Counted from the first letter of the stretch, positions 7,035 to 28,935 are shown. The stretch is DNA of 32,930 nucleotides from an uncultured Collinsella sp. (GCA_900556705.1 USPT01000001.1:1-32930), one strand, 5' to 3'. Made by a program: numbers and translations. Notes: generated from the letters alone by a model not told the origin.

Positions 7035-7103
7035 AAGTTGCGGTGAATTAGGGACTGAATATGCTATCTAGTAGCAAAACAGACACTATTTCACCGCAAC
7101 TTA
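7035..7103. repeat. Palindromic REP/MITE-like element, copy 1 (full)
   Basis: Left arm AAGTTGCGGTGAATTAGGGAC (7035-7055) and right arm GACACTATTTCACCGCAACTT (7082-7102) are inverted repeats. The same arms recur at 30597-30665, and a right arm alone occurs at 28914-28935. Confidence 0.85.
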
Positions 7104-7110
7104 TTTAAGG

Positions 7111-7230
7111 GCTGCTTGCGGCAGTTCCGGGCGTCCTCCTCGAGCTATTGGCGGATGACGGTCTTGTACGGCTCGAGCTTGCTCGGGGCGCTCCTCCTCG
7201 CGGGCGGGAGGACGCGCAGGCGCGGCGAGC
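7111..7230 (-). pseudogene. istA: IS21-family transposase (IstA) fragment with an in-frame stop
   Basis: The minus strand reads SPRLRVLPPARRSAPSKLEPYKTVIRQ*LEEDARNCRKQ, matching the IstA N-terminal pattern SKLDPYK..I..WL.ED...PRKQR. TAG at 7145-7147 sits where Trp (TGG) is expected. The fragment is truncated at both ends. Confidence 0.7.
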
Positions 7231-7232
7231 GC

Positions 7233-8006
7233 CTAGCGCGCGAACTCCCGTAAGAGTGCGTCTTCCACTTCCCGAAGCGAAAGGCCCCCGTCTCCCTCGG
7301 CGGGACGGGTGACCACGATGCAGCGCGCTCCCACGTCGCGCGCGGCGGCAAGCTTCTCGGCCGTGCCGCCTACGGTTCCCGAGTCCTTGGTCACAAGCCA
7401 CTGGGCTCCCACCTGCCGAAGCATCGCCTCGTTGAGCTCGCGGGTGAAGGGCCCCTGCATGCCGATGACGTGCGACGGCGAAAACCCCGCGTCGATGCAC
7501 TTCGTTATAGCACCGGGCAGCGGGAGCACACGCACGAAGAAGCGCTCCGAGAAATCGGCGACGCGCGTATAGGGAGCAAGCTCCTTGCTCCCCGTCGTGA
7601 GAAGCGCGCGACCCGGGTTCTCGGAGAGAAAGCGCGCCGCGCAGGCGATCGACGCGACCGACACGACGCCTTTGGGCAGCGCCTCGGCCGCACGCGCAAG
7701 GCGCAGACATCGTACACCCACGGCAAGCGAAGCGGCCCGGATGTTGCCGCTGGCGAGCGTAGCGAAGGGGTGCGTGGCGTCGACGACGATGCGCGCGCCG
7801 GAAAGCTCGCGCTCCATGTCGGCCTCGTCGAGCCTGCTCGCATGCACCTCGATGCCCGGAAGCTCGCCCAAAAGCTCGCCTCCGTACTCGGTTGCCGCGT
7901 AGGCACGGGCGGGGATGCCCGCCCCGCTCGCCCATTCGCACAGAAGGCGGCCCTCGGTGGTGCCGGCGAAGATGCGCAGCGCCGGCGCAGATGCGGGCGC
8001 CGTCAC
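7233..8006 (-). CDS. cbiJ: Cobalt-precorrin-6A reductase (CbiJ/CobK)
   Basis: IFAGTTEGR, VVDATHPFA, LLTTGSKEL, RVLP, GMQGPF, VTKDSG. GTG start overlaps the cbiC stop (GTGA). Confidence 0.92.
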   Translation of the reverse strand: MTAPASAPALRIFAGTTEGRLLCEWASGAGIPARAYAATEYGGELLGELPGIEVHASRLDEADMERELSGARIVVDATHPFATLASGNIRAASLAVGVRCLRLARAAEALPKGVVSVASIACAARFLSENPGRALLTTGSKELAPYTRVADFSERFFVRVLPLPGAITKCIDAGFSPSHVIGMQGPFTRELNEAMLRQVGAQWLVTKDSGTVGGTAEKLAAARDVGARCIVVTRPAEGDGGLSLREVEDALLREFAR

Positions 8007-8644
8007 TTCGGGCCGCCTGGGCGCGTGATCTGGTAGAGCAGCGCGTTCATAATGGCGGCCGCCACGGTCGAACCACCCTTGCGACCCCTCGCGACGATGG
8101 CCGGCGCGCGTCGCGCGAGTAGCTCCTCTTTCGCCTCGACCACGTTCACAAACCCGACCGGCACCCCAACGACGAGCGCGGGCGCGATCTTCCCCTCGTC
8201 CATGAGCTCGGCGAGGCGCAGAAGTGCTGTGGGAGCGTTGCCGACGGCCACGATGAGCGGACCCTCGATGCCGCAAGCTTTGTCCATGCTCGCAACGGCG
8301 CGAGTCGTGCCCGCGGCGCGCGCAGCCACGGCGACATCAGGGTCGGCCATGTAGCACACGGCCTTGCAGCCGAGCTTCGCGAGCGCAGGCTTGCTTATGC
8401 CTGCGAGCGCCATGTTCGTATCGGTGAGCACCGTGGCCCCTGCGCGCAGTGCGTCGAGCGCACAGTGCGCGGCGTCATGGGTGAACACGAGGGAATCGGC
8501 GTACGAGAAGTCGGCAGTGGTGTGGATGACGCGCTTCACGACGGGTTCTTCGAGCGGCGGGAACGTGCGGCCGCCGAGCTCTTCGGTGATGATCTCGAAG
8601 CTGCGCCGCTCGATGTCGCCGGGCGCCATCTCCTTGGAATCCAT
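8003..8644 (-). CDS. cbiC: Cobalt-precorrin-8 methylmutase (CbiC/CobH)
   Basis: IERRSFEII, RVIHTTAD, VGNAPTAL, PVGFVNVVEAKE, GRKGGS.VAAAIMNAL. Confidence 0.95.
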   Translation of the reverse strand: MDSKEMAPGDIERRSFEIITEELGGRTFPPLEEPVVKRVIHTTADFSYADSLVFTHDAAHCALDALRAGATVLTDTNMALAGISKPALAKLGCKAVCYMADPDVAVAARAAGTTRAVASMDKACGIEGPLIVAVGNAPTALLRLAELMDEGKIAPALVVGVPVGFVNVVEAKEELLARRAPAIVARGRKGGSTVAAAIMNALLYQITRPGGPK

Positions 8645-9160
8645 CTAGTACTCCACTCCTTCCCTTGCACATATCCCCTGCTCGTAGGGGTGTTTCTCGC
8701 ACCGCATCTCGGTTATGTAGTCGGCCTTCTCCACGATCTTGCGGGAAGGCGCGCGCCCGGTGAGCGCTACTTCGACGCCGCGCGCGGACATATCGAGCGC
8801 GCGGTCCACGAGCGCCTCGTCGACAAGCCCCTTCGAAAGCGCATCGAGCGCCTCGTCGAGCACGAGCAGCCCCTCCTGCGCGCCCTCGAGCTCGGCAAGC
8901 GCGGAAGCGAGGTTCCCATCGTGCAGCTCGCGCGTCGCGGCAAGTTCTTCCGACGACATCGACCAGGTAAACTTGTCCGACACCTTCCCCGCGAACACGG
9001 GCACGCCGAAATGCTCGGCGAGCAGGCGCGCCTCCCCGCTTTCGCCGTCTTTCAGGAACTGCACGACGACGACGCGGCGGCCTGCGGCGAGCATGCGAAG
9101 GGCGAGGCCCATCGCCGCCGTGGTCTTGCCTTTGCCGTCGCCATGATACACGTGAATCAT
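8645..9160 (-). CDS. cobO: Cob(I)yrinic acid a,c-diamide adenosyltransferase (CobO/BtuR type)
   Basis: MIHVYHGDGKGKTTAAMGLALR, VQFLK, LVLDE, LTGR, ADYITEM...KHPY..G..AREGVEY. ATG 9160 overlaps the cbiP stop. Confidence 0.93.
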   Translation of the reverse strand: MIHVYHGDGKGKTTAAMGLALRMLAAGRRVVVVQFLKDGESGEARLLAEHFGVPVFAGKVSDKFTWSMSSEELAATRELHDGNLASALAELEGAQEGLLVLDEALDALSKGLVDEALVDRALDMSARGVEVALTGRAPSRKIVEKADYITEMRCEKHPYEQGICAREGVEY

Positions 9161-10656
9161 ACGCCCTCCTCGATAATGCGGTAGACATACTCCATGTCGA
9201 GCGCTCCGCGCACGACGTCGGCCAGGCGGTCGAACTCGCGCGCACGGTGATCGGCCGCGGACGCCGCGCCCGCAGCACCCACGACGCTCTCGGGCAGGCC
9301 GCGCATGCGCGCGAGCGAGCGCGCGAGGGCGAGCGCCACCCCCGGTTCGTCGAACAGGCCGTGGAGATAGGTTCCGAACACGTTTCCGCAGGCCGCGCCT
9401 TCTGGTTTGCCGCCAATCGTGCCCGCAGGGGCGCAGGAGACGGTCGTTTCGCCGTCGTGAATCTCGTACCCACGCGCCGTCATGCCGTTCCACACCGAGA
9501 ACGCGCCTTGGGCGCCCGTGATGCGCAGCTCCGACTGGGCGAGGCGCTTTTCCTCCTTGAACACCGTACTTGCAGGGATGAGCCCGAGCCCGCGCGCGGT
9601 GCCAGCGCCTTCCCTGCCGTGCGGGTCCGAAAGCTCGTCTCCCAAAAGCTGGTAGCCTCCGCATATGCCGAGCACCGGCGTGCCCGCGCCCGAAAGCGCG
9701 CGTACACAGGCTCCGATGCCGCTAGCCGCAAGCCAGCGCGCGTCGTCGACCGTGGACTTCGAGCCGGGAAGCACCACCAGGTCGGGTCGGCCCAGATCGG
9801 TCGTCGAGGAAACGTAGCGCACGCCCATGCCGGGCACGCGCGAAAGCGGGTCGAAGTCGGTGAAGTTCGACAGATGCGGAAGGCGCACGACGGCGACGTC
9901 GATGACGCCGCGCGCCTCGCGGGCAGTTAGGCGCGGCGCGAGCGAGTCCTCGTCGTCCAGGTCGAGCGTAAGATACGGCACGACCCCCACGACGGGAACC
10001 CCGCACATTTTCTCGAGCGGAGCCAAACCCGGACGCAGGATTTCCACATCGCCGCGGAACTTGTTCACCATAAGCCCCCGCAAAAGCGCGCGGTCCTCGG
10101 GCGCAAGGAGCGCGACCGTGCCGTAGAGCTGGGCAAACACCCCGCCTGGGTCGATGTCGCCCGCGAGCAGCACGGGGGAGGACACGGCGCGCGCGAGCCC
10201 CATGTTGACGATGTCGTTTTCGGCAAGGTTGATTTCGACGGGACTGCCGGCGCCCTCGATGACGATGACGTCGTTTTCCTCCGCGAGCGAATCGAACGCC
10301 TCCAAAATCTGCGGCATGAGCGCCTTCTTTCGCGGGAAGTAGTCCCTCGCAGCGAAGGCTCCCTGCGCCTTGCCGGCCACGATGAGCTGGCTTCGGTGAT
10401 CGCTTTCGGGCTTGAGCAGGATGGGGTTCATGCGCACGTCGGGCGCGATGCCGCACGCCTCGGCCTGCATGATCTGAGCGCGCCCCATCTCGAGCCCGTC
10501 GGCCGTGACACCGCTGTTGAGCGCCATGTTCTGGCTCTTGAAGGGAGCCACGCGCAGGCCGTCCTGCGAAAGCACACGGCACAGCCCCGCCGCAAGCAGG
10601 CTCTTCCCCGCGTTCGACATGGTGCCCTGGATCATGATGGGCTTCGCCCTACCCAC
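9157..10656 (-). CDS. cbiP: Cobyric acid synthase (CbiP/CobQ)
   Basis: GTG 10656 after GGAGG. IMIQGTMSNAGKS, PFKSQNMALNS, MNPILLKP, EGAGSP.EINL, SNFTDF, GICGGYQ, GTYLHG. Confidence 0.95.
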   Translation of the reverse strand: MGRAKPIMIQGTMSNAGKSLLAAGLCRVLSQDGLRVAPFKSQNMALNSGVTADGLEMGRAQIMQAEACGIAPDVRMNPILLKPESDHRSQLIVAGKAQGAFAARDYFPRKKALMPQILEAFDSLAEENDVIVIEGAGSPVEINLAENDIVNMGLARAVSSPVLLAGDIDPGGVFAQLYGTVALLAPEDRALLRGLMVNKFRGDVEILRPGLAPLEKMCGVPVVGVVPYLTLDLDDEDSLAPRLTAREARGVIDVAVVRLPHLSNFTDFDPLSRVPGMGVRYVSSTTDLGRPDLVVLPGSKSTVDDARWLAASGIGACVRALSGAGTPVLGICGGYQLLGDELSDPHGREGAGTARGLGLIPASTVFKEEKRLAQSELRITGAQGAFSVWNGMTARGYEIHDGETTVSCAPAGTIGGKPEGAACGNVFGTYLHGLFDEPGVALALARSLARMRGLPESVVGAAGAASAADHRAREFDRLADVVRGALDMEYVYRIIEEGV

Positions 10657-11872
10657 GGGTATCGACCTCCTTCGCCGAGCCTCGGCCATCCGCGCCCGCC
10701 ATAGCGCCGCTGCAAGAAGCGCCGCCCCGTTCGTCGGGTTCGCCTTCGCCCGATGCGCCTTCCGCCCGAAGCGCGCGGCTGAACGCCATCGCAAGCCGGG
10801 CATTCTCCTTGTGCGTGCGCACGGCGACGCGGCACCAGAAACGGGACAGTATCGAAAACGAGTCGCACGTGCGGACCAAAACCCCCTGTTTATACAGGCG
10901 CTCGGGGATGTCTTTCGCCGGCGTGCGGACTAAAAGGAAGTTCGCATCCGACGGCACGACGGAAAGCCCGAGCGAGGAGAGCTCGTGGGAAAGCCACGCT
11001 CGCTCGCCCGCCAATACATCGCGCGTGCGCGAGACGTATTCGACGTCTTCCAGGGCGGCGATGCCCGCGGCCTCGGCGACCGAGGAGACGGGCCACGCCT
11101 GCCCCGCCCGACGAATCCCCTCGATGAGTTGGGCGTTTCCGCTGATCAGATACCCCAACCGCAACCCTGCCATTCCGTAGAGCTTGGTGAACGCGGAGAG
11201 CACGGCCACATGGTGCGAACACGCGGCGCGTGCGGCCACGCTCCTTTCGCGGGCGTCGGGCGCAAATCCGAGGAAGCACTCGTCCACGACGAGCAGCGCG
11301 CCCACCTGCTCGCAGCGGCAAGCCGCGGCATCGATCACGCGGGGGTCGACGAGGCGCCCCGTCGGGTTGTTCGGATTGCAGAGGTACGCCACGTCTCCCG
11401 GCCCCTCGATCGCGCGGGCGAAGGAGGCGGGCACGTCGAAGTCATCCGCCTCGGAGAGCGGGAACTCCTGCACGCATGCACCGTAGTACGATGCCGCCTC
11501 CGCATATTCAGAGAACGTCGGCGCGCACACGACGATGCGTTTCGGGCGTACCGCCGCGGCGAGCCGCCAGATGATGTCAGACGCGCCCGCGCCGCAGACG
11601 ATAGTATCTTCGGGAATGCCCTGGGCGCGCCCTAGGGCGCGAACGAGTGCGAGGCTTTCCCTATCGGGGTAGGCGTCGATTCGAGAAAGCGCCTTGCAAG
11701 CTGCGGCGACGGCGCGCGGCGAGGGGCCTGCCGGATTCACGTTCACCGAGAAGTCAATGAGGTCGGAGGCGCCCCCTTCGCAAGCGATGCCGAGCGATTG
11801 CGAGCTGCCCCCATGCGTACGGGCGCGCAGGATTCCCCCGGCAGCCTGGGGCGCGGCGTGGTCTTCCCTCAT
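10649..11872 (-). CDS. cobD: L-threonine-O-3-phosphate decarboxylase (PLP-dependent)
   Basis: HGG motif, DFSVNVNP.G, CNPNNPTG, VVDECF, SAFTKLYGMAGLRLGY (PLP lysine). Lies directly downstream of cbiB. Confidence 0.88.
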   Translation of the reverse strand: MREDHAAPQAAGGILRARTHGGSSQSLGIACEGGASDLIDFSVNVNPAGPSPRAVAAACKALSRIDAYPDRESLALVRALGRAQGIPEDTIVCGAGASDIIWRLAAAVRPKRIVVCAPTFSEYAEAASYYGACVQEFPLSEADDFDVPASFARAIEGPGDVAYLCNPNNPTGRLVDPRVIDAAACRCEQVGALLVVDECFLGFAPDARERSVAARAACSHHVAVLSAFTKLYGMAGLRLGYLISGNAQLIEGIRRAGQAWPVSSVAEAAGIAALEDVEYVSRTRDVLAGERAWLSHELSSLGLSVVPSDANFLLVRTPAKDIPERLYKQGVLVRTCDSFSILSRFWCRVAVRTHKENARLAMAFSRALRAEGASGEGEPDERGGASCSGAMAGADGRGSAKEVDTRG

Positions 11873-12846
11873 GCCATCGCCCCCACGGCGAGCACGACCG
11901 CCGCGCGCGCGGCGCCGAAGACGACGAGCGCGCATACGGACGCGGCGAGCATGAGCCTTGTCGCCCGTGCGATGTCGCCCCACTCGATTTCGCGGGACGC
12001 GTCGCCTATCGTCGGTTTCTCAACGAGCTTGCCGAAATACACCGCGGGTCCCGCCAGGCGCAGCCCGAGCGCGCCCGCGCACGCTGACTCGGTCTGCGCC
12101 GAGTTGGGGCTCGCATGGCGACGCCTGTCGCGGCGCCAGATGCGCGCCGCCCCGCGCGCGTCGAGCCCGACGATCGGGCACACGGCGATCATGAGCAGGG
12201 CCGATAAGCGCGAGGGAATCCAGTTCACCGCATCGTCGAGGCGCGCCGAGGCGCAGCCGAAGTCGATGTAGCGCTCATTTTTGTAGCCCACCATGCTGTC
12301 GAGCGTGTTCACCGCCTTGTACGCCATGCCCAAGGGCGCACCCCCGATCATAAGGTAGAAAAGCGGCGCGATGACGCCGTCGCTCGCGTTCTCCGCCACC
12401 GTTTCCACGGCGCCGCGCGCAACGCCCTGCTCGTCGAGAACAGACGTGTCGCGTCCCACGATGAGCCCGACGGCTTCGCGAGCCGCGACAAGGCCGCCCT
12501 TCGAGAACGCGCGGGCCACGGCCAGGCTCTGGCGGCGAAGCTCGCATGCCGCGAGAATCTGATAGCTTGCCCATGCCTCGGCCACGAAGCGCAAGCCGGA
12601 GTGAACCATGCCGCAAAGATGCAGGATTCCCCAGGTCAAAAGCCCACACGCAAGCGGAAGCGCCACGGCGAGCACAAGCCCTGCGGCGCGCGTGCCCGCG
12701 GACGTTTGCGGGAATGCGCCCCGCAGGCGGCCTTCGGCCCACGTGATCGCGCGCCCCATGGCGACGACGGGATGGGGAAGCCAGCGCGGGTCGCCGAAGG
12801 CAAGGTCGGCCGCGAACCCGGCGGCGACGGCAAGAATCGTCATCAC
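11869..12846 (-). CDS. cbiB: Adenosylcobinamide-phosphate synthase (CbiB)
   Basis: GDPRWLPHPV, IVGRDT, AVETVAENASDGVIAPLFY, YKAVNTLDSMVGYKN, H.SPNSA, YFG....KPTIG. Start is GTG 12846 or ATG 12843. Confidence 0.95.
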   Translation of the reverse strand: MMTILAVAAGFAADLAFGDPRWLPHPVVAMGRAITWAEGRLRGAFPQTSAGTRAAGLVLAVALPLACGLLTWGILHLCGMVHSGLRFVAEAWASYQILAACELRRQSLAVARAFSKGGLVAAREAVGLIVGRDTSVLDEQGVARGAVETVAENASDGVIAPLFYLMIGGAPLGMAYKAVNTLDSMVGYKNERYIDFGCASARLDDAVNWIPSRLSALLMIAVCPIVGLDARGAARIWRRDRRRHASPNSAQTESACAGALGLRLAGPAVYFGKLVEKPTIGDASREIEWGDIARATRLMLAASVCALVVFGAARAAVVLAVGAMA

Positions 12847-13844
12847 CGGGCATCGCCCCCCGAAGCGGGGCGAACGTCGCGAAGGCAGCGCCCATCCCAG
12901 GTGGCGGCCCATGCACCACCCGGCTCGGTATGCACGTCGAAGTATCCCATTTTCGGGACAGCTAGCTCGGAGAGCAGCGCTTTCACGGTACCCGCGTGAA
13001 CGACGAAGACGGCGCGCCCACTCCCCTGGGCGCGCTCCGATTCGCACGCCTCCCGAAACGCCGCGACGACGCGGCGGGTGAAATCGCTCTTGCCCTCGCC
13101 ATGCGGGCAGCGCGTCTCACACCAGGAGTCTACCCAGGCGCGGTAACGCGCATCCTCTTTAAGTTCGGCGGCGCTTCGCCCCTCGAAGTCGCCGAAATCT
13201 ATCTCGCGCAGACCGGGGCACGCCATAAGCTCCGCGTTCGGGAAGAGAATGCGTGCCGTCTGGTCGGTGCGGGCCATGCCGCTCGTGATAACACGGAACA
13301 CGTCACGATCGCACGCGAGGTCGCGCAAAGCGCGCTCGCCCGCGCTCGACAGGGGCTCGTCGGTGCCCGCCCCGCTGTAGCGATGGTCTTCCGTGCCCGC
13401 CGTGGCACCATGGCGCACGAAGATGACTTCCAAAGGCGCGCCCGCGCCCAGCGTCCCTCGAGGCGCATCGGCAAGGTTTCCTTTGATGACCTGGGGAATC
13501 CCGCACGTCATGCGCACGACGACGTCGGCGCGCGCAGCGAGCGCGCATCCCAGGCGCCCCGCGCGCTCGCGCCATTGGGCGTCTTCCGCACGCATAGGGA
13601 CGACCCCCGAGCCGACCAAGGTCAGAATCACTGCGTCGAAGCCAATCAGCCGCTCGAGCGCCCGGTCAGCGTCGAGCGTGCGTACGAGTTCCTCAGCACG
13701 GTACGCGACACGGCCGGCAAAAACCGCGGGCACGACGCCCTCCGCAAGCTGCGCCGCGTCGACGAAATCGTCCGCCGCGAACCCGAGCTTTTCGCGCACG
13801 AAGGTCCTCTTCCCCGAATGCGCGCCACCTACCACGAGCATCAT
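12843..13844 (-). CDS. cobC: Fusion of a short CobU-like P-loop domain and a histidine phosphatase (alpha-ribazole phosphatase, CobC-like)
   Basis: N-half: MMLVVGGAHSGK...VGSGVVP....WRERAGRL...LAARADVVVRMTCGIP. C-half: RHG motif (IFVRHGAT), LREIDFGDFEG, VVHAGT. ATG 13844 overlaps the cobS stop. Confidence 0.8.
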   Translation of the reverse strand: MMLVVGGAHSGKRTFVREKLGFAADDFVDAAQLAEGVVPAVFAGRVAYRAEELVRTLDADRALERLIGFDAVILTLVGSGVVPMRAEDAQWRERAGRLGCALAARADVVVRMTCGIPQVIKGNLADAPRGTLGAGAPLEVIFVRHGATAGTEDHRYSGAGTDEPLSSAGERALRDLACDRDVFRVITSGMARTDQTARILFPNAELMACPGLREIDFGDFEGRSAAELKEDARYRAWVDSWCETRCPHGEGKSDFTRRVVAAFREACESERAQGSGRAVFVVHAGTVKALLSELAVPKMGYFDVHTEPGGAWAATWDGRCLRDVRPASGGDAR

Positions 13845-14608
13845 AGGAGCATGCCCCCCGCCACCAGCATGGCAAGCATCGCGAGCTCGGCCCATTGCAG
13901 AAACCATCCGGCCAAATCCCCCGTCACCCCGCCGAAGCGGGACAGGGCAACATGGCGATACCACGCGAGCGCCAAAAGCCCCGCCACCGCCATAAGGGCG
14001 CCGACGGCCCGAGCGCACGCGACCATCCCTGCAGCCGAAGCCGCAGCGAAAGCGCAAAGCGGCACGACGATCGCCGCGCGCTTCTTCGAAGGCGAGAGTC
14101 CCGCGGCCATGCCGTCCGCCCGAGCGGCAGGCCAACATTCAACGGCGAGCCCCGAAAGCGCGCGGGAGAACACGAGCGAGCACAGAAGCGCAAGGAACGT
14201 CCCCGCCGTAAGCGGCAGCGCGGTGAACAGGGAAAACTGCAGAATAAGGTACACGACAACACCGATGACCCCGAAGGCGCCCGCCCGCGGGTCGTGCATG
14301 ATCTCGAGCTTTCGCTCGCGTGGGGCCCAACTTGCAAGCGCATCGGAGGTGTCGCAGAGCCCGTCTAGGTGGATGCCTCCCGTCACCGCCACAGGCAGCG
14401 CCACGAGCACAGCCGCGACGATGGTCGCGGGCACGCCGAACAGGTTCGCCATGTACCCCCACGCCGTCATGAGGAAGCCTTCCGCAACGCCCACCAGGGG
14501 AAACGCGGCAAGCGCATGGGTTGATCCGAAATCGGTCCAGGTCGATTTCGGGACGGGGATGCGCGAGAACGTTCCGAACGCCGCGCCGATTGCCTCTGCT
14601 ATCTTCAC
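13841..14608 (-). CDS. cobS: Adenosylcobinamide-GDP ribazoletransferase (cobalamin synthase)
   Basis: FSRIPVP, FPLVG, TGGIHLDGLCDTSDA, LEIMHDPRAGAFG, FGGVTGD..G. GTG 14608 overlaps the cobU stop. Confidence 0.95.
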   Translation of the reverse strand: MKIAEAIGAAFGTFSRIPVPKSTWTDFGSTHALAAFPLVGVAEGFLMTAWGYMANLFGVPATIVAAVLVALPVAVTGGIHLDGLCDTSDALASWAPRERKLEIMHDPRAGAFGVIGVVVYLILQFSLFTALPLTAGTFLALLCSLVFSRALSGLAVECWPAARADGMAAGLSPSKKRAAIVVPLCAFAAASAAGMVACARAVGALMAVAGLLALAWYRHVALSRFGGVTGDLAGWFLQWAELAMLAMLVAGGMLL

Positions 14609-21009: not shown

Positions 21010-22186
21010 ACGTCGCCCCCAATACCCCGATAACTGCATCGGCGCCCGACGTGCGGAAAAGCTCGCGGCGCTCGGCGTCGAACACGACCGCGGCGATGTC
21101 GCATGCGCCCGCCGCGCGGCGGCGCAACCTGTCCTCGATTGCCGCAGCGAGCGAGGCGCACGCAGCGTCCCCCACGCCGGCGGCCTCGATTACCTCGAGT
21201 GCCGCCGTGGTCGTGACGGACGTCATGATCTCGCGCACGGTCTTCGCGCCCGCGCCGGCCATGGCCGCGTGGGCGGCCAGAATCTCCGCGCGGCAGTCGG
21301 CGGTACGCGAATGGGTGTCCATGATACCGCCCGCGACCTTCACCAACTTGCCGATGTGTCCCACAAGAAGGACATTGGTAAATCCCTCGCGAATGCAGCA
21401 ATCAATCGCATCGCCCACAAAGTTGGAGATGAAGACCACCGGCGCACCGTTTAGGTGGAAATGCCCTGAGATGAACTGCGCGCCGTAGTTGCCGGGCGTG
21501 AGCACGACTCCGCACCGCCCCATAGCCGCATGCTGCCGGATCTCGAGCTCGATACTGTCGCGCAAGGCAGCGAGGCTGCGCGGCTCGACGATGCCCGTCG
21601 TGCCCAGGATGGAGATGCCGTCCTTTATCCCCAGGTGCGGGTTGAAGGTCTTTTCGGCAAGGGCAACACCCTCGGGTACCGAAATTGTCACAGCAATATC
21701 TCCAGAAAAGCCGTGCACGGCGCACACCTCGCGCACCGCCGAAGTGATCATCGCGCGCGGCGTCGCGTTGATGGCGGCCGCCCCCACCGGCTGCTCGAGC
21801 CCGGGCAACGTCACGCGCCCCACGCCCACGCCGCCGTCGACGGAAACTTCCGATTCGTGCGCGGGTACGTCCTTGCTGCCCGCAGCGCCCGTGCCCGACC
21901 CCGCATGTTCCACGCGCGCGTACACGAGCACGCCGTCGGTCACATCGGCATCGTCGCCTGCGTCCTTTCGCACGGCACACTGGGCGCACCCCTCGCCGAT
22001 GCATGCGTCGACCACGTTCGCCTCGACGGGCAGCCCGCCGGGGGTGACGATCGACACGAGGCCGACGGGCTTTCGTGACAAGAGCATCTCGCAGGCCGCC
22101 TTCGCCGCGAGCGCGGCGCAGCTCCCCGTGGTGTAGCCGCAGCGCAGGCGGGTCGTCCCGGTATATATGTAGTGCTCGAAGGCCAC
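21002..22186 (-). CDS. cbiD: Cobalt-precorrin-5B C1-methyltransferase (CbiD)
   Basis: LRCGYTTGSCAALAAKAA, KDAGDDADVT, GVGRVTLPGL, AINATPR, KTFNP.LGI..GISILGTTGIV.P, GH.GKLVK.AGG...THSR. GTG start at 22186. Confidence 0.95.
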   Translation of the reverse strand: MAFEHYIYTGTTRLRCGYTTGSCAALAAKAACEMLLSRKPVGLVSIVTPGGLPVEANVVDACIGEGCAQCAVRKDAGDDADVTDGVLVYARVEHAGSGTGAAGSKDVPAHESEVSVDGGVGVGRVTLPGLEQPVGAAAINATPRAMITSAVREVCAVHGFSGDIAVTISVPEGVALAEKTFNPHLGIKDGISILGTTGIVEPRSLAALRDSIELEIRQHAAMGRCGVVLTPGNYGAQFISGHFHLNGAPVVFISNFVGDAIDCCIREGFTNVLLVGHIGKLVKVAGGIMDTHSRTADCRAEILAAHAAMAGAGAKTVREIMTSVTTTAALEVIEAAGVGDAACASLAAAIEDRLRRRAAGACDIAAVVFDAERRELFRTSGADAVIGVLGATYE

Positions 22187-22187
22187 G

Positions 22188-22979
22188 CTAGCTGCTCGCC
22201 TTCCGATACCCCGTGGAAAACGAAGGGTCGTAAAGCTTGCTGCGCTCGTACGACTCCGCTTGCGCGCCGTTGTGTGCAAGCCTGCCGCGAGCTCCGAGCA
22301 CGCGGCCCACCACCACGAGCGCCGTGCGGTCGATGCCCTCTCGCGCGCCCGCATCGGCGAGCGTGCGCACTGTGCATCGCACCACGCGCTCCTCAGGCCA
22401 GGTCGCCTTGTACACGAGCGCCGCCGGCTCATCGGAGCTGCGGCCCGCGGCCAAAAGCTCGGCGGAAAGCTCGGCGAGCATACCCGAGCTCAGGAAGATG
22501 ACCATAGTCGAGCCGCTTTCCGCCATGGTGCGCATGCCCTCGCCCGCGGGCATGGGGGTGCGCCCGGAAAGCCGCGTGATCACGACCGACTGGCTGATTC
22601 CCGGCAGCGTATATTCCTGGCGAAGCGCCGCCGCGGCACCGCAAAAGCTCGACACGCCGGGCACCACCTCGTAGTCCACGCCGCGCGCGTCGAGCGCGTC
22701 CATCTGCTCCTGGATGGCGCCGTACAGGCACGGGTCGCCCGTGTGCAGGCGCACCACTTCCTCGTCCCGCGCATCTGCCGCGCACATCACGTCGAGCACT
22801 TCCTCCAAGGTCATGTGCGCGCTGTCATAGACGATGCAGGATTCCTTGCACTCGGCGAGCAGCTCGGGGTTCACAAGGCTCCCCGCCCAAACGACCACGT
22901 CGGCCGCGCGCAAAAGGCGCGCCCCGCGCAGCGTGATAAGGTCGGCGGCGCCCGAGCCAGCGCCAACGATATGAATCAT
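22188..22979 (-). CDS. cbiF: Cobalt-precorrin-4 C11-methyltransferase (CbiF/CobM)
   Basis: MIHIVGAGSGAADLITLRG, AGSLVN, RLHTGDP..YGAI.EQ, E.TLPG.SQ, YKATWP.E, RSKLY...F. RBS GGAAGG upstream of ATG 22979. Confidence 0.95.
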   Translation of the reverse strand: MIHIVGAGSGAADLITLRGARLLRAADVVVWAGSLVNPELLAECKESCIVYDSAHMTLEEVLDVMCAADARDEEVVRLHTGDPCLYGAIQEQMDALDARGVDYEVVPGVSSFCGAAAALRQEYTLPGISQSVVITRLSGRTPMPAGEGMRTMAESGSTMVIFLSSGMLAELSAELLAAGRSSDEPAALVYKATWPEERVVRCTVRTLADAGAREGIDRTALVVVGRVLGARGRLAHNGAQAESYERSKLYDPSFSTGYRKASS

Positions 22980-23110
22980 CCGAGCCTTCCCTTCCCGTTT
23001 CTCATCGCAACCGTTTACGCTGCCATTCGCGCAGCGGCCAAAACACGGCGCCCGAAGCGGCAATCGGCGCAAATACGCAGGCAGGAGGCGCAATGCCGCC
23101 CGCCCTGGCT

Positions 23111-23139
23111 TTGACACGTTCAAAAGTGCCCACTATCAT
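23111..23139 (+). promoter_or_regulatory. Sigma70-type promoter for the riboswitch/cbiK operon
   Basis: TTGACA (23111-23116), 17-bp spacer, TATCAT (23134-23139). Confidence 0.75.
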
Positions 23140-23172
23140 AGTAAAAGATTCGGCAACGAGCATATGACAATC

Positions 23173-23321: not shown

Positions 23322-23437
23322 TCACGGCATCGCCGTGGCGTTAGCTCCTTGTGAACCCCGAGGGGTGCGCTTTTCTTTCGCTTGTGCCGACAAGCAACTG
23401 TCGCCGGGGGACCGGCAAACCGAGGAAAGGAAAAACC

Positions 23438-24364
23438 ATGTCCGACCAGATGTCACGCCGCGGCTTCATGGGCGCCGCAGCAACCGGAGCCGTCGCGCTC
23501 GCTGGAGTCGCGCTCGCGGGCTGCTCCAACACCTCCGCGAGTTCCGAGAAATCGAGTGAAAAGGAGAAGGCCGTGAAGCCGGTCATCCTCGTCACGAGCT
23601 TCGGCACGAGCTACAACGACTCGCGCCACATCACCATCGGCGCCATCGAAGACGCTATCCGCGAGAAGTACTGGCAGGACTACGACATCCGCCGCGCCTT
23701 CACCGCGCAGATCATCATCGACAAGCTGAAGAAGCGCGACGGCATCACGATCGACAACATGACCGAAGCGCTCGACCGCTGCGTGGAAGACGGCGTGAAG
23801 GAAATCGTCGTGCAGCCGACACATCTCATGGGTGGCCTGGAATACACCGACGTGAAAGACGAGCTCGACAAGTACGCTGACAAGTTCGACAAGATCTCGC
23901 TCGGCGACCCGCTGCTCACCTCCGACGACGACTACAAGAAGGTGGCCGCAGCCATTAAGGAGAACATGGCGTCCTTCGACGACGGCAAGACGGCGCTGTG
24001 CCTCATGGGCCACGGCACCGAAGCCGATTCCAACGCCGACTATGCCAAGATGCAGGAAGTGTTTAAGAACGAGGGCTTGACGCAGTTCTTCGTCGGCACC
24101 GTCGAGGCTGAACCGACCTGCGAGGATGTTATCGCCGCCGCGAGCGCCGCAGGCTACAAGAAGGCCGTGCTCGCGCCGTTCATGGTGGTCGCGGGCGACC
24201 ACGCGAACAACGACATGGCAGACGAGACCGACCCCGACAGCTGGGCTGCGAAGTTCGTGGCCGCCGGCTTCGAAGTGACGTGCCTGCTCCAGGGTCTGGG
24301 ACAGAACGTCGCGGTCGACGACATCTACGTCGCGCACGTGGACGACGCCATCGCCAAGCTGTAA
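23438..24364 (+). CDS. cbiK: CbiK-family cobalt chelatase carrying a Tat signal and lipobox (exported lipoprotein)
   Basis: MSDQMSRRGFMG (twin-arginine) and ALAGC lipobox. ILVTSFGTSY, RRAFT, QPTHLM.G.EY, MGHGT, VGTVE, VAGDHANNDM carry the metal-ligand His/Glu/His. Confidence 0.92.
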   Translation: MSDQMSRRGFMGAAATGAVALAGVALAGCSNTSASSEKSSEKEKAVKPVILVTSFGTSYNDSRHITIGAIEDAIREKYWQDYDIRRAFTAQIIIDKLKKRDGITIDNMTEALDRCVEDGVKEIVVQPTHLMGGLEYTDVKDELDKYADKFDKISLGDPLLTSDDDYKKVAAAIKENMASFDDGKTALCLMGHGTEADSNADYAKMQEVFKNEGLTQFFVGTVEAEPTCEDVIAAASAAGYKKAVLAPFMVVAGDHANNDMADETDPDSWAAKFVAAGFEVTCLLQGLGQNVAVDDIYVAHVDDAIAKL

Positions 24365-24373
24365 ACTCGCCGC

Positions 24374-24446
24374 GCACGGGGGCGCCGGTCGCGTCCCCGT
24401 GCAACGGGCATGCGCCTTCCCCGACCGACGGCGCATGCCCGTTGCA
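24374..24446. other. Tandem intercistronic stem-loops after cbiK
   Basis: 12-bp stem (24374-24385 with 24391-24402, one G-U pair) and a perfect 17-bp stem TGCAACGGGCATGCGCC / GGCGCATGCCCGTTGCA (24400-24416 with 24430-24446). No U-tract follows. Confidence 0.7.
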
Positions 24447-24509
24447 TTCGCGTCCCGCCCTCCCACCGCACGAGCGGGCGGTCGAAGCGATTGAAAGGAA
24501 CCTCCCTCC

Positions 24510-25043
24510 ATGTTGAAGAAAACCCTCGCCTTCGCCCTGTCAGCGGCGCTTTTCGCGTTCTCGCTCGCCGGCTGCGGCGGAAATTCAATCGACAGCGCAA
24601 AGGCAAGCGATGCCGATTCCCAGGAAAAGACCGAACAGGCGGCCGATGCGCCCGAGGGCGCAAGCGCTGCCCCCATCACCGCCGACAAGGTGGCCGACGG
24701 CACCTATCCGATCACCGTAGATTCCAGCTCGAACATGTTCAGGATTGTGGACGCCCAGCTCATCGTGGAAAACGGCTCCATGCACTGCGTGATGACGCTT
24801 TCCGGCACGGGCTACGGCAAGCTCTTCATGGGCACGGGCGACGAGGCTGCCGCCGCGAGCGAGGCCGACTTCATCCCCTATGTGGAAAACGCGGAAGGCA
24901 AGTACACCTACGACGTGCCCGTTGAAGCGCTCGACGAGGACACCGCCTGCGCCGCGTGGAGTATTAGAAAAGAGCAGTGGTACGACCGCACGCTCGTGTT
25001 CGAATCCGCCGGCGTCGATCTGCGCGCCGACGCACTGAAGTAA
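24510..25043 (+). CDS. Uncharacterised lipoprotein with one NEAT-like beta-rich domain
   Basis: RBS GAAAGGA, signal peptide with SLAGC lipobox, acidic linker, then DGTYPITVDSSSNMFRI...TLSGTGYGKLFMG...TYDVPVEALD...WYDRTLVF. Confidence 0.75.
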   Translation: MLKKTLAFALSAALFAFSLAGCGGNSIDSAKASDADSQEKTEQAADAPEGASAAPITADKVADGTYPITVDSSSNMFRIVDAQLIVENGSMHCVMTLSGTGYGKLFMGTGDEAAAASEADFIPYVENAEGKYTYDVPVEALDEDTACAAWSIRKEQWYDRTLVFESAGVDLRADALK

Positions 25044-25047
25044 CGCC

Positions 25048-26619
25048 ATGCGGTCGATTCTTCCCAAGGGGGAAAGCAGGAAGCGTCGCAGCATCGCGGT
25101 GCGCGCGATCGCCTGCGTTCTCGTCGCCCTGTTCGCGCTTCCCTTCGCGGGGTGCAGTGCGAGCCCGAACGCGACCGGTGGCACGGCAGGCTCTCAGGAA
25201 TACACTGTGAGCGTCTCGCTCTCCGGCGGGTCAGGGCGCGCAAGCATCGCCTCACCCACCACAATTGTGAAGGATGGCGACACCTACACCGCGACCATCA
25301 CCTGGTCGAGTTCGAACTACGACAAAATGACCGTCAACGGCGTGGACTACGCGCCCGTAAACGACGGCGGCAACTCCACGTTCGTGATACCCGTCACGCT
25401 CGACGAGGACATCGCCGTGTCGGCCGAGACCGTCGCCATGTCAACGCCGCACACCATCGACTACACGCTCCACTTCGATTCATCCACCATGAAGGAGAAA
25501 TCGGGCGACGAAGCAAGCGGCGGCTCCCCTGCGGGAACGGCTTCAAACGCCGCGGCCGACTTCCACAACGCCGATTTGGGCTGCGGCTGGAAGCCGACGG
25601 GGACGCTTCAGCTTGAATACGCCGAGCACTTCACTGTCGACGAGTACGAAGGCGGCCTGCGGCTTATCTGCATTTCGAACGGGGAGCGCTTCCTCGTGGT
25701 GCCGCAAAATGCAAAGGTACCTGATGGGTTGAGCTCCGACATCGCGGTCATAAGGCGCCCCGCCGACAAGGTGTACCTCGTGTCGTCGGCGACGATGTGC
25801 CTGGTCGACGCGCTCGATGCGAACGACAATATCCTCATGTCGGGCACGAAGGCCGACGATTGCTCGGTCGCGGGCTTTAAAAGCGCGCTCGAAAGTGGGG
25901 CGATCGCCTACGGCGGCAAGTACAGCGCGCCCGACTACGAGCGAATATCGGCCTCGGGCTGCACGCTCGCCATCGAGAACACCATGATCAACCACACGCC
26001 CGATGTGAAGGAAAAGCTGCAGAAACTCGGGCTCGTCGTGCTCACCGAACAGTCGTCGAGCGAGCCCGAAGCACTCGGGCGCGTCGAGTGGATTAAGCTT
26101 TTCGGCGTCCTGTTCGACAAGGAAGACGAGGCCGCGCACCTGTTCAACGAGCAGAAGGCCCGCGTCGAGCAAACGTCGGGGCTCGCGTCGTCAGGTAAAA
26201 CCGTGGCGTATTTCTACATTAACTCGAACGGGGCCGCCGTCACGCGGCGGGCGGGCGACTACGTGGCGCAGATGATCGAGCTTGCAGGCGGCAGCTACGC
26301 GCTCGATGACGCGCAGACGGCGTCGACGTCAGGTTCGTCAGTAACGCTCGAAATGGAGCGCTTCTACGCGACGGCGAAGGATGCCGACATCATCGTCTAC
26401 AACGGCGCCATCGACAAATCGGTTGCCACCTTGAACGACTTTGTAGGCAAAAACGCGCTATTGTCGCAGTTCAAAGCCGTGAAGAATGGCAACGTCTGGG
26501 TCACAAGCGCCGACATGTACCAGCAGATGACTTCTACCGCCGACATTATCGACGAGCTGCACGGGGCGTTCACCGGCGATGACGCGAGCGACTTCCATTA
26601 TCTGAGGAAGCTTGGCTAG
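25048..26619 (+). CDS. ABC substrate-binding lipoprotein: N-terminal NEAT-like domain fused to a BtuF/iron-chelate-type binding domain
   Basis: FAGC lipobox, then the domain EYTVSVSLSGGSGRASI...AMSTPHTIDYTLHFD and a linker. The C-terminal domain LEYAEHF...GKYSAPDYE...E.EALGRVEWIKLFG...GNVW resembles B12/Fe-complex binding proteins. Confidence 0.85.
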   Translation: MRSILPKGESRKRRSIAVRAIACVLVALFALPFAGCSASPNATGGTAGSQEYTVSVSLSGGSGRASIASPTTIVKDGDTYTATITWSSSNYDKMTVNGVDYAPVNDGGNSTFVIPVTLDEDIAVSAETVAMSTPHTIDYTLHFDSSTMKEKSGDEASGGSPAGTASNAAADFHNADLGCGWKPTGTLQLEYAEHFTVDEYEGGLRLICISNGERFLVVPQNAKVPDGLSSDIAVIRRPADKVYLVSSATMCLVDALDANDNILMSGTKADDCSVAGFKSALESGAIAYGGKYSAPDYERISASGCTLAIENTMINHTPDVKEKLQKLGLVVLTEQSSSEPEALGRVEWIKLFGVLFDKEDEAAHLFNEQKARVEQTSGLASSGKTVAYFYINSNGAAVTRRAGDYVAQMIELAGGSYALDDAQTASTSGSSVTLEMERFYATAKDADIIVYNGAIDKSVATLNDFVGKNALLSQFKAVKNGNVWVTSADMYQQMTSTADIIDELHGAFTGDDASDFHYLRKLG

Positions 26620-27664
26620 CGTCATGAGAAGCCGGCTTTCCATGACATACGACGAATCGGGGCGCGCCGCGCGGTGTCGCGTCGTGACGGCGCTGCTCGC
26701 TGTTGCCCTCATCGTGCTCGTCGGGGCCAACCTGTGCATCGGGAGCGTGCTCGTGCCCGCAGACCACATCCCCGGTATCCTTTCGGGCGGCGCGGCCAAT
26801 TCCATGGAAAGCCAAGTCATCTGGGAGATTCGCCTGCCGCGTGTGCTTTCAGCCGTGCTTCTCGGCGGGGCGCTTTCTCTCTCCGGGTTCCTGCTGCAGA
26901 CGTTTTTCAACAACCCCATCGCCGACCCGTTCATCTTGGGCGTCTCCTCGGGCGCAAAGTTCGTCGTCGCGCTTACGATGATCGTGCTTCTGGGCGCGAA
27001 CCAGGCCATGTCCTCGCCGGCCATGGTGGCCGCAGCGTTTCTGGGATCGCTTATCACCATCGGCTTCGTGCTCCTCATCGCACAGCGCATAAGTTCCATG
27101 GCCATGCTCATCGTGGCGGGCGTCATGGTGGGATACATCTGCTCGGCGGCGACGAACTTTCTCATCGCCTTCGCCGACGACCAGTCCATCGTGAACCTGC
27201 ACAACTGGTCTTTGGGTAGCTTCTCAGGTTCGAGCTGGGACGACATCGCGGTCATCGCGGTCGTGGTGATCACCGTGAGCGCATGCGTATTCGCGATATC
27301 GAAGCCCCTTTCCGCCTTCCAGCTGGGAGAAGCCTACGCGAAAAGCGTCGGCGTGAACGTCGCACGCTTCCGCGTGGTGCTCGTCCTTCTAGCGAGCATG
27401 CTCTCCGCCTGCGTGACCGCGTTCGCTGGTCCGGTGTCGTTCGTAGGCATCGCGGTTCCGCATCTCGTGAAGTCGGCGCTGAAGTCGTCGAAGCCCATCC
27501 GCGTGATTCCTGCGTGCTTCTTGGGAGGCGCCATCTTCTGCGCGGGCTGCGATTTGATCGCGCGCACGCTGTTCTCCCCCGTCGAGCTTTCCATCAGCGC
27601 CGTCACCGCCATCTTCGGCGCGCCGGTGGTTATCGCACTCATGTTGAAGAAGCGGGTGAGGTAG
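26612..27664 (+). CDS. FecCD/BtuC-family ABC permease
   Basis: IRLPRV, LLQTFFNNPIADPFILGVSSGA, W.LGSF, LGEAYAKS.G, GPVSFVG.AVPHL, CDLIAR. Start is TTG 26612 or ATG 26624. Confidence 0.93.
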   Translation: MASVMRSRLSMTYDESGRAARCRVVTALLAVALIVLVGANLCIGSVLVPADHIPGILSGGAANSMESQVIWEIRLPRVLSAVLLGGALSLSGFLLQTFFNNPIADPFILGVSSGAKFVVALTMIVLLGANQAMSSPAMVAAAFLGSLITIGFVLLIAQRISSMAMLIVAGVMVGYICSAATNFLIAFADDQSIVNLHNWSLGSFSGSSWDDIAVIAVVVITVSACVFAISKPLSAFQLGEAYAKSVGVNVARFRVVLVLLASMLSACVTAFAGPVSFVGIAVPHLVKSALKSSKPIRVIPACFLGGAIFCAGCDLIARTLFSPVELSISAVTAIFGAPVVIALMLKKRVR

Positions 27665-28879
27665 ATGGGGGAATTCATGCCGCGGCCCAAAACGCTCAGA
27701 GGGGAGTCGAACCTCGAAACCCCGGTCGAAACGCAGGCTGACGGAGCGCCGCTTTTCCGCATAAGCGACCTGTCGGCGGGCTACGACAAGAAGGTCGTAG
27801 TCGAAGGCGTCGATCTGGAGGTTCGCGCGGGCGACGTCGTGGCGCTCATCGGGCCGAACGGCTCGGGCAAGTCGACCATCTTGAAAACCATCACACGCCA
27901 TCTGGCACCGCTTGCCGGCGCGGTCGAGCTCGACGGGCGAGAGATTTCCCGATGGAAGACGGCGGAGTTCGCAAGGAACCTTGCCGTTATGCTGACAGAT
28001 CGCCCCCGGACCGAGCTCCTCACCTGCCGCGATATCGTAGAGGCGGGAAGGCATCCCTACACCGGGCGAATGGGCACACTCTCGCCTGACGACTACAGTC
28101 GGGTCGACGAGGCCATGAAAACCGCACATGTGGAAGAGCTCGCCGAGCGCGACTTCATGCAGATAAGCGACGGGCAACACCAGCGCGTCATGCTCGCACG
28201 CGCCATCGCGCAGGATCCGCGTGTGCTCGTGCTCGACGAGCCCACATCGTATCTCGATATCCGCTACCAGATCGACCTGCTGCGAATACTTCGCCACCTT
28301 GCGAAATCGCGGAATGTGGCTGTCATCATGTCCATCCACGAACTCGAGCTCGCGCAGAAAAGCGCCGACAGGGTGATTTGCGTGAAGGACGGCCGGGTCT
28401 TCCGCGCCGGCGCACCCGAGGACATATTCACGCGCGAGACGATTGGCGAGCTCTACGGCCTTAAACATGGCACCTTCAACGAGCGCTTCGGCAGCGTGGA
28501 AATTGGGCGCCCACACGGCGATGCGCACACGTTCGTCATCGCCGGCGCAGGTACGGGGTCAGCTGTGTTTCGCCAGCTAATCCGGCAGGGCAAGGCGTTC
28601 TACGCGGGCGTTCTGCACGAAGGGGACATCGACTGCGAGCTTGCGCGCGACCTGGCGACGGAATGCGTGGCCGAGCGCGCCTTCGAGCCGATCGGGGATA
28701 AAACCATAGCCCGCGCCAAAGAGCTCCTCGTTCACTGCGCGCGTCTTATCGTGTGCCCCGCCGCCTTCGGCACCATAAACGCCCGCAACGCAGAGCTCGT
28801 CGAGTTCGCACGATCGCATGGTATCGAGGTCATGCGAGCGTGCGAAGGCGCATCGGAGGATTCCATTGGATACGCCTAG
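27665..28879 (+). CDS. FecE/BtuD-family ABC ATPase with a C-terminal extension
   Basis: GPNGSGKST, GRHPY, ISDGQHQR, VLDEPTSYLD, SIHEL. An extra ~125-aa C-terminal segment begins at FVIAGAGTG. Confidence 0.92.
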   Translation: MGEFMPRPKTLRGESNLETPVETQADGAPLFRISDLSAGYDKKVVVEGVDLEVRAGDVVALIGPNGSGKSTILKTITRHLAPLAGAVELDGREISRWKTAEFARNLAVMLTDRPRTELLTCRDIVEAGRHPYTGRMGTLSPDDYSRVDEAMKTAHVEELAERDFMQISDGQHQRVMLARAIAQDPRVLVLDEPTSYLDIRYQIDLLRILRHLAKSRNVAVIMSIHELELAQKSADRVICVKDGRVFRAGAPEDIFTRETIGELYGLKHGTFNERFGSVEIGRPHGDAHTFVIAGAGTGSAVFRQLIRQGKAFYAGVLHEGDIDCELARDLATECVAERAFEPIGDKTIARAKELLVHCARLIVCPAAFGTINARNAELVEFARSHGIEVMRACEGASEDSIGYA

Positions 28880-28913
28880 GCGCGGTCCAAGAAATCGTCC
28901 GCACCCCCTATCT

Positions 28914-28935
28914 GACCCTATTTCACCGCAACTTA
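28914..28935 (+). repeat. Solo right arm of the REP/MITE-like element; right direct repeat of the island
   Basis: GACCCTATTTCACCGCAACTTA; the 18-bp core is identical to 7086-7103. No local left arm is present. Confidence 0.85.

Follow-up and report, generated by a model that had tools for sequence, protein, structure and literature searches.

The cobalamin gene block of a Collinsella genome is probably an old insertion at a dispersed REP-like hairpin repeat

Results

The cobalamin block and its neighbors

The stretch of DNA analyzed here, referred to as the window, is a 32,930-nt sequence from an uncultured Collinsella sp. (GCA_900556705.1, USPT01000001.1:1-32930), with positions counted from its first nucleotide. 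The window contains a block of cobalamin (vitamin B12) genes of about 22 kb, the cob block, and each end of this block is marked by an arm of a palindromic repeat. Based on the comparisons with genus relatives described below, we propose, with a probability of about 0.62, that the cob block is an old insertion at a repeat of the kind called repetitive extragenic palindromic (REP) sequences, that these repeats act as portable homology and as targets for an insertion sequence (IS), and that no dedicated integrase is needed. The genome that contains the window, G000, is a 57% complete assembly of 1,331,647 bases in 249 contigs; its relatives are numbered in the same way.

The cob block has two parts. 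The first is a 16-kb cobalamin biosynthesis operon on the minus strand (7233..23123; Pfam and NCBIfam), which contains cbiJ, cbiC, cobA/btuR, cobQ, a cobD-type aminotransferase gene, cbiB, cobC, cobS, cobU, and cobT, followed by cbiA, cbiET, a gene for a TP methylase, cbiG, a cbiL fragment, cbiD, and a second TP methylase gene. The second, on the plus strand (23351..28879; Pfam and NCBIfam), contains cbiK, an unknown open reading frame (ORF), and the genes for a BtuF/FecCD/BtuD-like ATP-binding cassette (ABC) importer. To the left of the block, the plus-strand genes up to position 7022 are predicted by Pfam and NCBIfam to encode a serine dehydratase, an L,D-transpeptidase, an HlyD-like protein, an ABC ATPase, and a MacB-like permease (macB, 5808..7022; Pfam MacB_PCD and FtsX), orthologues of which are 87-99% identical in genus relatives. 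To the right are a plus-strand radical S-adenosylmethionine (SAM)/SPASM-type gene (29068..30501; Pfam and NCBIfam, with weak NirJ/AhbD-like NCBIfam matches) and, on the minus strand, a tetR-family regulator (30690..31328), which is the neighbor of macB in the empty sites described below, together with an LPG-synthase-like gene. The only tRNA in the window (Rfam) is at 32879-32930, outside the cob block.

An earlier reading of this DNA, made from the sequence alone and referred to as the sequence-only reading, had described the block as an island without an integrase. This description was upheld by a Pfam scan, which detected no integrase, recombinase, or transposase among the 40 ORFs of the window, 31 of which lie in the interval between the repeats.

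Repeats at the ends of the block

An 18-bp core, CTATTTCACCGCAACTTA, is present at both ends of the block (7086-7103 and 28918-28935), and the two plus-strand 22-mers that contain it (7082..7103 and 28914-28935) are identical at 21 of 22 positions. From the end of the left copy to the cbiJ stop (7233) the distance is 129 bp, and the right copy begins 34 bp beyond the stop of the importer ATPase gene (28879). On the left, the repeat forms the right arm of a full hairpin element (7035..7102; folds of -31.6 and -35.6 kcal/mol, z -9.5 and -10.0), the arms of which (7032-7057 and 7080-7105) are 85% complementary and the left arm of which lies 12 nt downstream of the macB stop. The right copy has no partner arm, and a fold of 28890-28945 gives a z value of +0.38; it is contained in a plus-strand segment (28909..28936) in which a shortened loop remnant is joined to the right arm from a split element, here called the solo arm. 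This arm also forms an inverted pair with the left arm of the left element (7035-7058 and 28911-28934, 88% over 24 nt). The direct repeats that bracket the block, the full palindrome on the left, the solo arm on the right, and the inverted pair had all been reported in the sequence-only reading, and each was found as claimed when the sequence was read again. To these we add a third copy, also full, between the radical SAM gene and tetR (30597..30665; folds of -32.5 and -45.6 kcal/mol, z -7.4 and -8.5), which that reading did not contain. Across the two full copies in the window, the minimum free energy ranges from -31.6 to -45.6 kcal/mol and z from -7.4 to -10.0.

The element is one copy of a dispersed REP-like family

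The 14-nt core of the arm has 22 exact matches in G000, 57 when one mismatch is allowed, and 70 when two are allowed; these matches assemble into 33 full elements, with nearly fixed spacing of the arms, and 4 solo arms. In relatives, searches with a 16-nt arm pattern and up to 2 mismatches returned 43 plus-strand and 43 minus-strand matches in G021, which is a complete genome, 41 and 45 in G020, 26 and 25 in G003, and none in G015, with 0-2 matches for a reversed-pattern control. Full copies number about 25-45 in related complete genomes. An exact two-arm scan of one genome per prokaryote species found at least 125 stretches, and among the matches listed 77 of 80 are titled Collinsella, 2 are titled "uncultured bacterium," and 1 is recorded under Methanobrevibacter smithii. 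This last match is a perfect Collinsella element on a 4-kb contig, the assignment of which to that species is probably a binning error.

An alignment of the 33 elements of G000 shows a total length of ∼70 nt, with a 22-bp stem and a variable loop of ∼20-25 nt. The outer stem is almost invariant (GTTGCGGTGAAATA / TATTTCACCGCAAC), and the inner stem exists in three covarying versions (GGGAC/GTCCC, GTTCC/GGAAC, and CGGAC/GTCCG), with compensatory changes at four inner stem pairs. Just beyond each arm, copies across G000 have a G-rich run (consensus approximately A-T-K-R-G-G-G-G, read outward), and therefore the palindrome reaches weakly past the 22-bp stem. No Rfam match to the element was found, either at gathering thresholds over the whole window or at E ≤ 1 over 22900-31000. 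A simple terminator scan did not flag the elements because their loops exceed the limit of the scan, so this result has no bearing on a terminator function.

The position of the copies relative to genes was scored for the 25 elements that have a called gene on both sides (8 at contig ends were excluded, and 1 of those counted was flagged inside a called ORF). Twelve are at convergent junctions, 13 at tandem junctions, and none at divergent junctions, compared with a background of 188, 553, and 242, respectively, among 983 junctions, so that ∼6% of convergent (12/188) and ∼2% of tandem (13/553) junctions are occupied. The copies are extragenic, immediately 3' of genes, and several single genes in G000 have a full element on either side.

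The hypothesis that the family depends on a REP-associated tyrosine transposase (RAYT) was considered and rejected. Matches to the Y1 transposase domain (PF01797) were present in 5 of 5 genomes searched (in G000 on contigs C50 and C33; in G021 at 216, 775, and 890 kb), all of them away from the arms, and none adjoins an arm match.

From these results, we conclude that the elements are a REP-like family that is dispersed, lineage-specific, located outside and 3' of genes, and able to form a stable hairpin. The repeat is a member of this family and not an attachment site specific to this island or a pair of mobilizing ends.

Empty sites in relatives place the breakpoint inside one element

The flanking genes and the cob genes were located in 24 genus relatives, and the regions were then read. 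The full order macB-cob-tetR was found in 11 of the 24, and 5 more show part of this order on short contigs. In G021, G006, and G022, macB adjoins tetR, and the two genes are separated by a single full element that starts 12 nt past the macB stop. A further relative, G010, contains cob and lacks the radical SAM gene; its right junction reads, in order, an IS end, TTTAGG...loop, right arm, AGGGG..., and tetR. The loop, right arm, and flank at this junction match those of the empty-site element, and the left arm of the same element is still beside macB, where it is followed by a different loop and right arm. Because the two halves in G010 match the empty-site element, the cob block is placed exactly where the left arm of an ancestral element met its loop. 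In the window, likewise, the left arm of the 7035..7102 element is orthologous to the empty-site left arm, its loop and right arm (loop2-R2) are absent from the empty sites, and the segment at 28909..28936 is homologous to the loop1-R1 sequence (loop and right arm) present in G010 and at the empty sites.

As a wider draw, 151 genus genomes were queried with the 1-kb empty junction of G021. The macB-tetR junction is contiguous in 18 of them, with one element in 15 and a different hairpin in 3 (G115, G134, and G157), where an unrelated GC-rich hairpin replaces the element. Among the individual alleles, the element of G084 has lost its loop, that of G148 has a 1.3-kb IS inside it, and G111 has one unsplit palindrome between macB and tetR without cob. 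G135, also without cob, has the order macB, one element, radical SAM gene, and tetR. In ∼85 genomes, by a count from the table, the two halves of the junction are apart, at a distance of 22.0-24.2 kb where both are on one contig, with the cob gene content of the region verified in 16 relatives. The sequence-only reading had predicted both an empty site with a single palindrome and the order macB-palindrome-radical SAM gene without cob. The first was found in G021, G006, G022, G111, and others, with one unsplit palindrome between macB and tetR and the breakpoint exactly at the repeat, and the second was found in G135. The block is not core to the genus, as CobT was detected in 64 of 151 genomes (52 of the 102 high-quality ones), and a search for CobT elsewhere in 20 genomes that lack cob at this locus found it in none.

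These data also bear on whether the bracketing of the block could be a coincidence arising from a frequent repeat. The repeat is indeed common, with 70 arm matches in 1.33 Mb and three sites in the 33-kb window. However, given that only ∼6% of convergent and ∼2% of tandem junctions in G000 carry an element, the expectation that two given junctions both do so is ∼0.002-0.004, and the halves at the two ends of cob match a single empty-site element, flank for flank. Coincidence is already contradicted by this match, and we consider it hardly credible.

An IS3-family insertion sequence accounts for the solo arm

A blastn comparison with an intact copy in G021 identified 28866..28908 (plus strand, 100% identity) as the last 43 nt (positions 1257-1299) of a 1,299-bp IS3-type IS, including its terminal inverted repeat ...GTCCGCACCCCC (...CACCCCC). 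Intact copies have the ends GGGGGTGCGGAC...GTCCGCACCCCC and a transposase with HTH_21, rve (DDE), and rve_2 domains (Pfam). The copies in G021 and G148 are flanked by 3-bp target duplications (TTT, AAT, TTT, TTA, TTT, and GTT). By its transposase domains and 3-bp duplications, the IS belongs to the IS3 family. G021 has five intact copies, three of them in the loops of hairpin elements and two in the loops of other hairpins; the preference may therefore be for hairpin loops generally. In G148, the IS in the macB-tetR element has the same orientation as the remnant at the cob junction and sits 1 nt from the corresponding position.

The part of the IS that is kept at the cob junction differs among genomes. 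Positions 701-1299 remain in G013, 701-840 and 1176-1299 in G019, 701-781 in G002, and 1257-1299 in both G000 and G010, and the junctions of eight further genomes resemble that of G002 by eye. The common start at position 701 argues for one old truncation in which the 5' half of the IS was lost and, along with it, the right-hand element's left arm. The right copy of the repeat would thus be solo because the IS landed in the loop of an element and a deletion then took the 5' half of the IS and the left arm. The loop in the window is ∼19 nt shorter than that of G010. In addition, the ATPase gene owes its stop and its last three codons to the IS remnant, an arrangement that we attribute to a later deletion that fused this gene to the tail of the transposase.

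At the same junction, CCCTATCTGA (28906-28915) is immediately 5' of CCCTATTTCA (28916-28925), and this adjacency had been taken to resemble junction microhomology. It consists instead of the IS terminus (the C run), next the shortened loop, and last the arm. A candidate left end of the IS, TGGGAAGG..., next to btuD was ruled out, as intact copies end in GGGGGTGCGGAC and the stretch after btuD is the stop codon and 3' region of that gene.

The radical SAM gene is a separate cassette

The radical SAM gene is present at >90% identity in 4 of the 24 relatives and is absent from most of those that carry cob. In G009, G024, and G013, it is to the right of cob, as in the window. In G019, it is to the left, between macB and cbiJ, and contains an internal TAA. 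At both of these alternative positions, the cassette is bounded by elements. This gene thus forms a cassette of its own that is placed independently of cob, which changes its earlier treatment as the right-hand neighbor of the restored palindrome.

Recombination between elements at other loci

On contig C49 of G000 (L166 1495-2744), a GFO/IDH/MocA oxidoreductase gene lies between two full elements, and most relatives are alike. G021 and G005 lack the gene, and each retains exactly one element. In G021, the inner stem and loop of the right-hand copy are joined to the left flank; in G005, the inner stem and loop of the left-hand copy are joined to the right flank. As the crossovers fall in different arms, these are two independent deletions by recombination between the repeats. 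The yaaA locus (G000 contig C9) has two diverged haplotypes, of which only one has a downstream element. G000, G020, and G021, which come from different clades, share a nearly identical version of the haplotype with the element, and this sharing suggests exchange of alleles between species. Gene loss between elements is supported at one of the two additional loci tested.

The sequence-only reading had proposed that the repeat acts with an enzyme supplied in trans. If so, the elements would be true recombination sites, and a site- or structure-specific enzyme encoded elsewhere would insert and excise cassettes of one or more genes plus a hairpin, the 22-kb block among them. This proposal agrees with the breakpoint exactly at the arm/loop boundary, with the two alternative, element-bounded positions of the radical SAM cassette, and with the single genes between two full elements at several places in G000; moreover, with its conserved outer arms, covarying inner part of the stem, and free loop, the element is reminiscent of folded recombination sites. 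However, the interval encodes no integrase or recombinase, the elements are dispersed rather than arrayed, and the Y1 transposase matches are not beside them. The use of the left arm in one C49 crossover and the right arm in the other fits homologous recombination and not a fixed cleavage site, and the arm/loop boundary at the cob junction is also the point of IS insertion. Nothing in these data requires an enzyme in trans; the elements at C49 behave as ordinary substrates for recombination between repeats, and we regard this explanation as distinctly unlikely.

Direction and age of the event

A FastTree tree was made from the nucleotide sequences of macB, tetR, and the LPG-synthase gene of 37 genomes and rooted at its midpoint; G014 and G015 were excluded as too distant. 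All 17 cob-bearing genomes are in one clade, and 18 empty-site genomes, including G148 with its IS-carrying element, are outside it. A 22-genome protein tree from a quick IQ-TREE run, with G014 and G015 included, agrees with this result (SH-like approximate likelihood ratio test support of 96 for the cob clade). G015, which has zero elements, has macAB homologues beside the LPG-synthase gene and no cob. The composition profile that the sequence-only reading had called for shows an atypical biosynthetic operon, with a GC content for 7233-23123 of 68.1% against 60.1 ± 3.0 (z 2.65); this region holds the two highest of the 127 5-kb segments of the assembly. Outside the genus, the best CobT match is 49% identical. 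The tree, the outgroup, the composition, and the sequence distance favor one gain of the cob block at the base of a large clade. The island is old, fixed, and syntenic in that clade and is not visibly mobile now.

We also considered that there was no integration at the repeat, such that cob is old at this locus, each operon end has its own 3' hairpin, and the empty sites are later deletions. Loss of B12 synthesis is common in gut bacteria, elements are found 3' of genes throughout the genome, a deletion between two elements is seen at C49, and G111 and G135 lack cob inside the cob clade. In contrast, at least 3 further independent losses would have to be assumed for G015 and the 18 empty-site genomes that fall outside the clade, and neither the GC anomaly of the operon nor the lack of CobT elsewhere in genomes that are empty at the locus is what this history predicts. 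Furthermore, because the IS truncation at position 701 is shared, the left arm at the right junction was lost before the clade diversified, so sites with the order left arm-loop1-R1 could not be regenerated from it. We judge this history to be improbable, although it is an alternative to be taken seriously.

Several observations weigh against an old insertion at the repeat. The direction of gain depends on three flanking genes, which recombine, and on midpoint rooting of their tree, and G111 and G135, without cob, are nested within the cob clade. Their precise single elements are not derivable by simple deletion from the cob architecture of today, because the left arm of the right-hand element is gone; whole-allele exchange would explain these empty alleles better, and it must then be invoked at this locus. 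If the donor was outside Collinsella, as the GC content suggests, it is unexplained how the left junction acquired a second loop and right arm. The composition itself is atypical for the biosynthetic operon and not for the importer part, as the GC content of 23351-28879 (cbiK-btuD) is an ordinary 62.4%. Most of the genomes are metagenome bins, the assemblies of which break at repeats, and the gene contexts of the elements come from a crude stop-anchored GC3 gene caller that was wrong for 2 of 30 window genes. Finally, the yaaA locus has no gene insertion or deletion and no readable target duplication, and its alleles have no clean element boundary because they differ in flanking sequence too.

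Gene content of the cobalamin cluster

The biosynthetic operon of the window contains only an 87-amino acid C-terminal fragment of cbiL (20776..21039, minus strand, in the segment 20733-21077; NCBIfam TIGR01467 positions 161-229), the gene for cobalt-factor II C20-methyltransferase. Compared with the full gene of G009 (∼229 amino acids), cbiL is cut by a 446-bp deletion. The resulting short gap between cbiG and cbiD (228 bp versus 684 bp) is also found in G002, G016, G023, G007, G024, and G004. Because cbiL is truncated, the B12 cluster of G000 and these six relatives is possibly incomplete, and de novo corrin synthesis may be broken in them, as judged from gene content.

Between cbiK and the binding-protein gene, 24410-25043 contains two overlapping ORFs of 171 and 177 amino acids without a Pfam or NCBIfam match, and this region is kept at 87-99% identity in the relatives checked. 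No cobalamin riboswitch was detected by Rfam at gathering thresholds over the whole window or at E ≤ 1 over 22900-31000, which includes the divergent promoter region (23124-23350). In two other genus genomes, contigs G050:C46 and G121:C25 carry a CobT that is 53-56% identical to that of the window, a level of divergence that points to a putative second, separately derived cob cluster in the genus.

Discussion

A route for entry of the cob block

The results above are consistent with the following sequence of events. Before the arrival of cob, a single element would have been present between the convergent macB and tetR genes. The cob/btu block would then have been placed between the left arm and the loop of this element in the common ancestor of one large clade, giving a left junction of left arm-new loop-new right arm and a right junction of (left arm)-old loop-old right arm. 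An IS3-type IS at the arm/loop boundary of the right-hand element, followed by a deletion of IS positions 1-700 and the left arm there, would account for the truncation that relatives share, and in G000 a second deletion would have reduced the IS to 43 nt and shortened the loop, which leaves the arm solo. As to the route, we infer that recombination may have brought the block in, with the left arm of the element as the substrate on one side and possibly a resident copy of the IS on the other. A state like that of G148 is a plausible intermediate, which would put arrival of the IS ahead of that of the block, and the donor would have carried an element and the same IS.

More generally, the cob block, the radical SAM cassette, and other genes could move by recombination between dispersed repeats, whether elements or copies of the IS, and whole-allele exchange through the flanking genes probably contributes to gain, loss, reshuffling, and the empty alleles. 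No recombinase that is encoded by the island or dedicated to it would be needed for this movement. The interpretation given in the sequence-only reading is supported in part, and the mechanism is more ordinary than the one that it had proposed.

A bolder possibility is that the hairpins are working exchange sites, with units of gene plus hairpin, such as the radical SAM gene, an oxidoreductase gene, or even the 22-kb block, moved by an unlinked structure-specific enzyme, perhaps the transposase of the loop-seeking IS3-type IS that provides, with its right end, the right boundary of the island. We hold this to be an unlikely speculation; if it were true, the exchange sites would constitute an integron-like cassette economy, without the integron platform, in a dominant genus of the human gut.

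Comparison with known repeat and mobile systems

The elements most resemble the REP sequences and bacterial interspersed mosaic elements (BIMEs) of Enterobacteria and Pseudomonas, which are also short imperfect palindromes that are dispersed, extragenic, 3' of genes, lineage-specific, and able to form stable hairpins. The insertion sequences IS1397 and ISKpn1 of the IS3 family insert into REP sequences. REP sequences and BIMEs likewise have tens to hundreds of copies. They are described as hot spots for IS insertion and rearrangement by Tobes and Pareja (2006; PMC1525189), who also list ISPsy8, ISPa11, ISPpu9/10, and ISRm19/22 among the IS types that insert into REP sequences. The Collinsella family differs in that its sequence is unrelated, its host is an actinobacterium of the gut, its stem is longer (22 bp), its loop is large and variable, its copy number is lower (about 25-45 full copies), and it has no Rfam match. 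In the same way, the IS at the cob junction resembles REP-targeting ISs in its IS3-family domains, its copies in the loops of host palindromes, and its 3-bp duplications, whereas it is a distinct IS with ends of its own (GGGGGTGCGGAC...), and 2 of its 5 copies in G021 are in other hairpins.

With REPIN-RAYT systems, the elements share two inverted conserved arms around a spacer and a multicopy hairpin. However, the defining single-copy Y1 (IS200-like) transposase flanked by repeats was not found beside any element, and because no such flanking transposase was found, we do not place the elements in this class.

The likeness to the attC sites of integrons lies in the order of genes followed by an imperfect palindrome with a conserved outer and a variable inner part, in cassette-like presence and absence, and in the variable positions of the radical SAM gene. 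In contrast to an integron, the elements are scattered over all of G021 and are not arrayed, and their crossover points vary. The order of the GTT/AAC core motif is opposite to that of the attC consensus. No integrase-attI platform was seen, although no search dedicated to IntI was made.

As in an integrase-type island, the locus has a 22-kb accessory block of atypical GC content, flanking direct repeats, and a precise empty site. Unlike a classical island, it has no integrase and no tRNA target, its repeat is multicopy, the block is fixed and syntenic in a large clade, and the sole trace of a mobility gene is the remnant of an unrelated IS. Comparison with miniature inverted-repeat transposable elements (MITEs) is limited to one IS, the only one studied, the ends of which differ from the element, and to the yaaA locus, which gave no readable target duplication. 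The element qualifies neither as an integron nor as an integrase-type island, and it cannot be shown to be a MITE.

Implications for Collinsella

Keyword and arm-sequence searches of the literature did not find a published description of a Collinsella hairpin family. No description of it was found in passages of PMC7771070 and PMC8040213, and a supplementary table of the latter gives many candidate structured RNAs from Collinsella (243 mentions) without sequences, one of which could be the element. As far as these searches reach, a REP-like family in an actinobacterial gut genus was previously undescribed. An IS that targets repeat loops, together with repeat-mediated gene loss, provides a handle on the turnover of accessory genes in this genus and a marker for variable loci.

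Collinsella is common in the human gut, where the capacity of each species to make corrinoids matters for cross-feeding. With respect to this capacity, the B12 cluster is best viewed as a clade-specific insertion, the site of which is exactly defined and unoccupied alleles of which persist in the genus.

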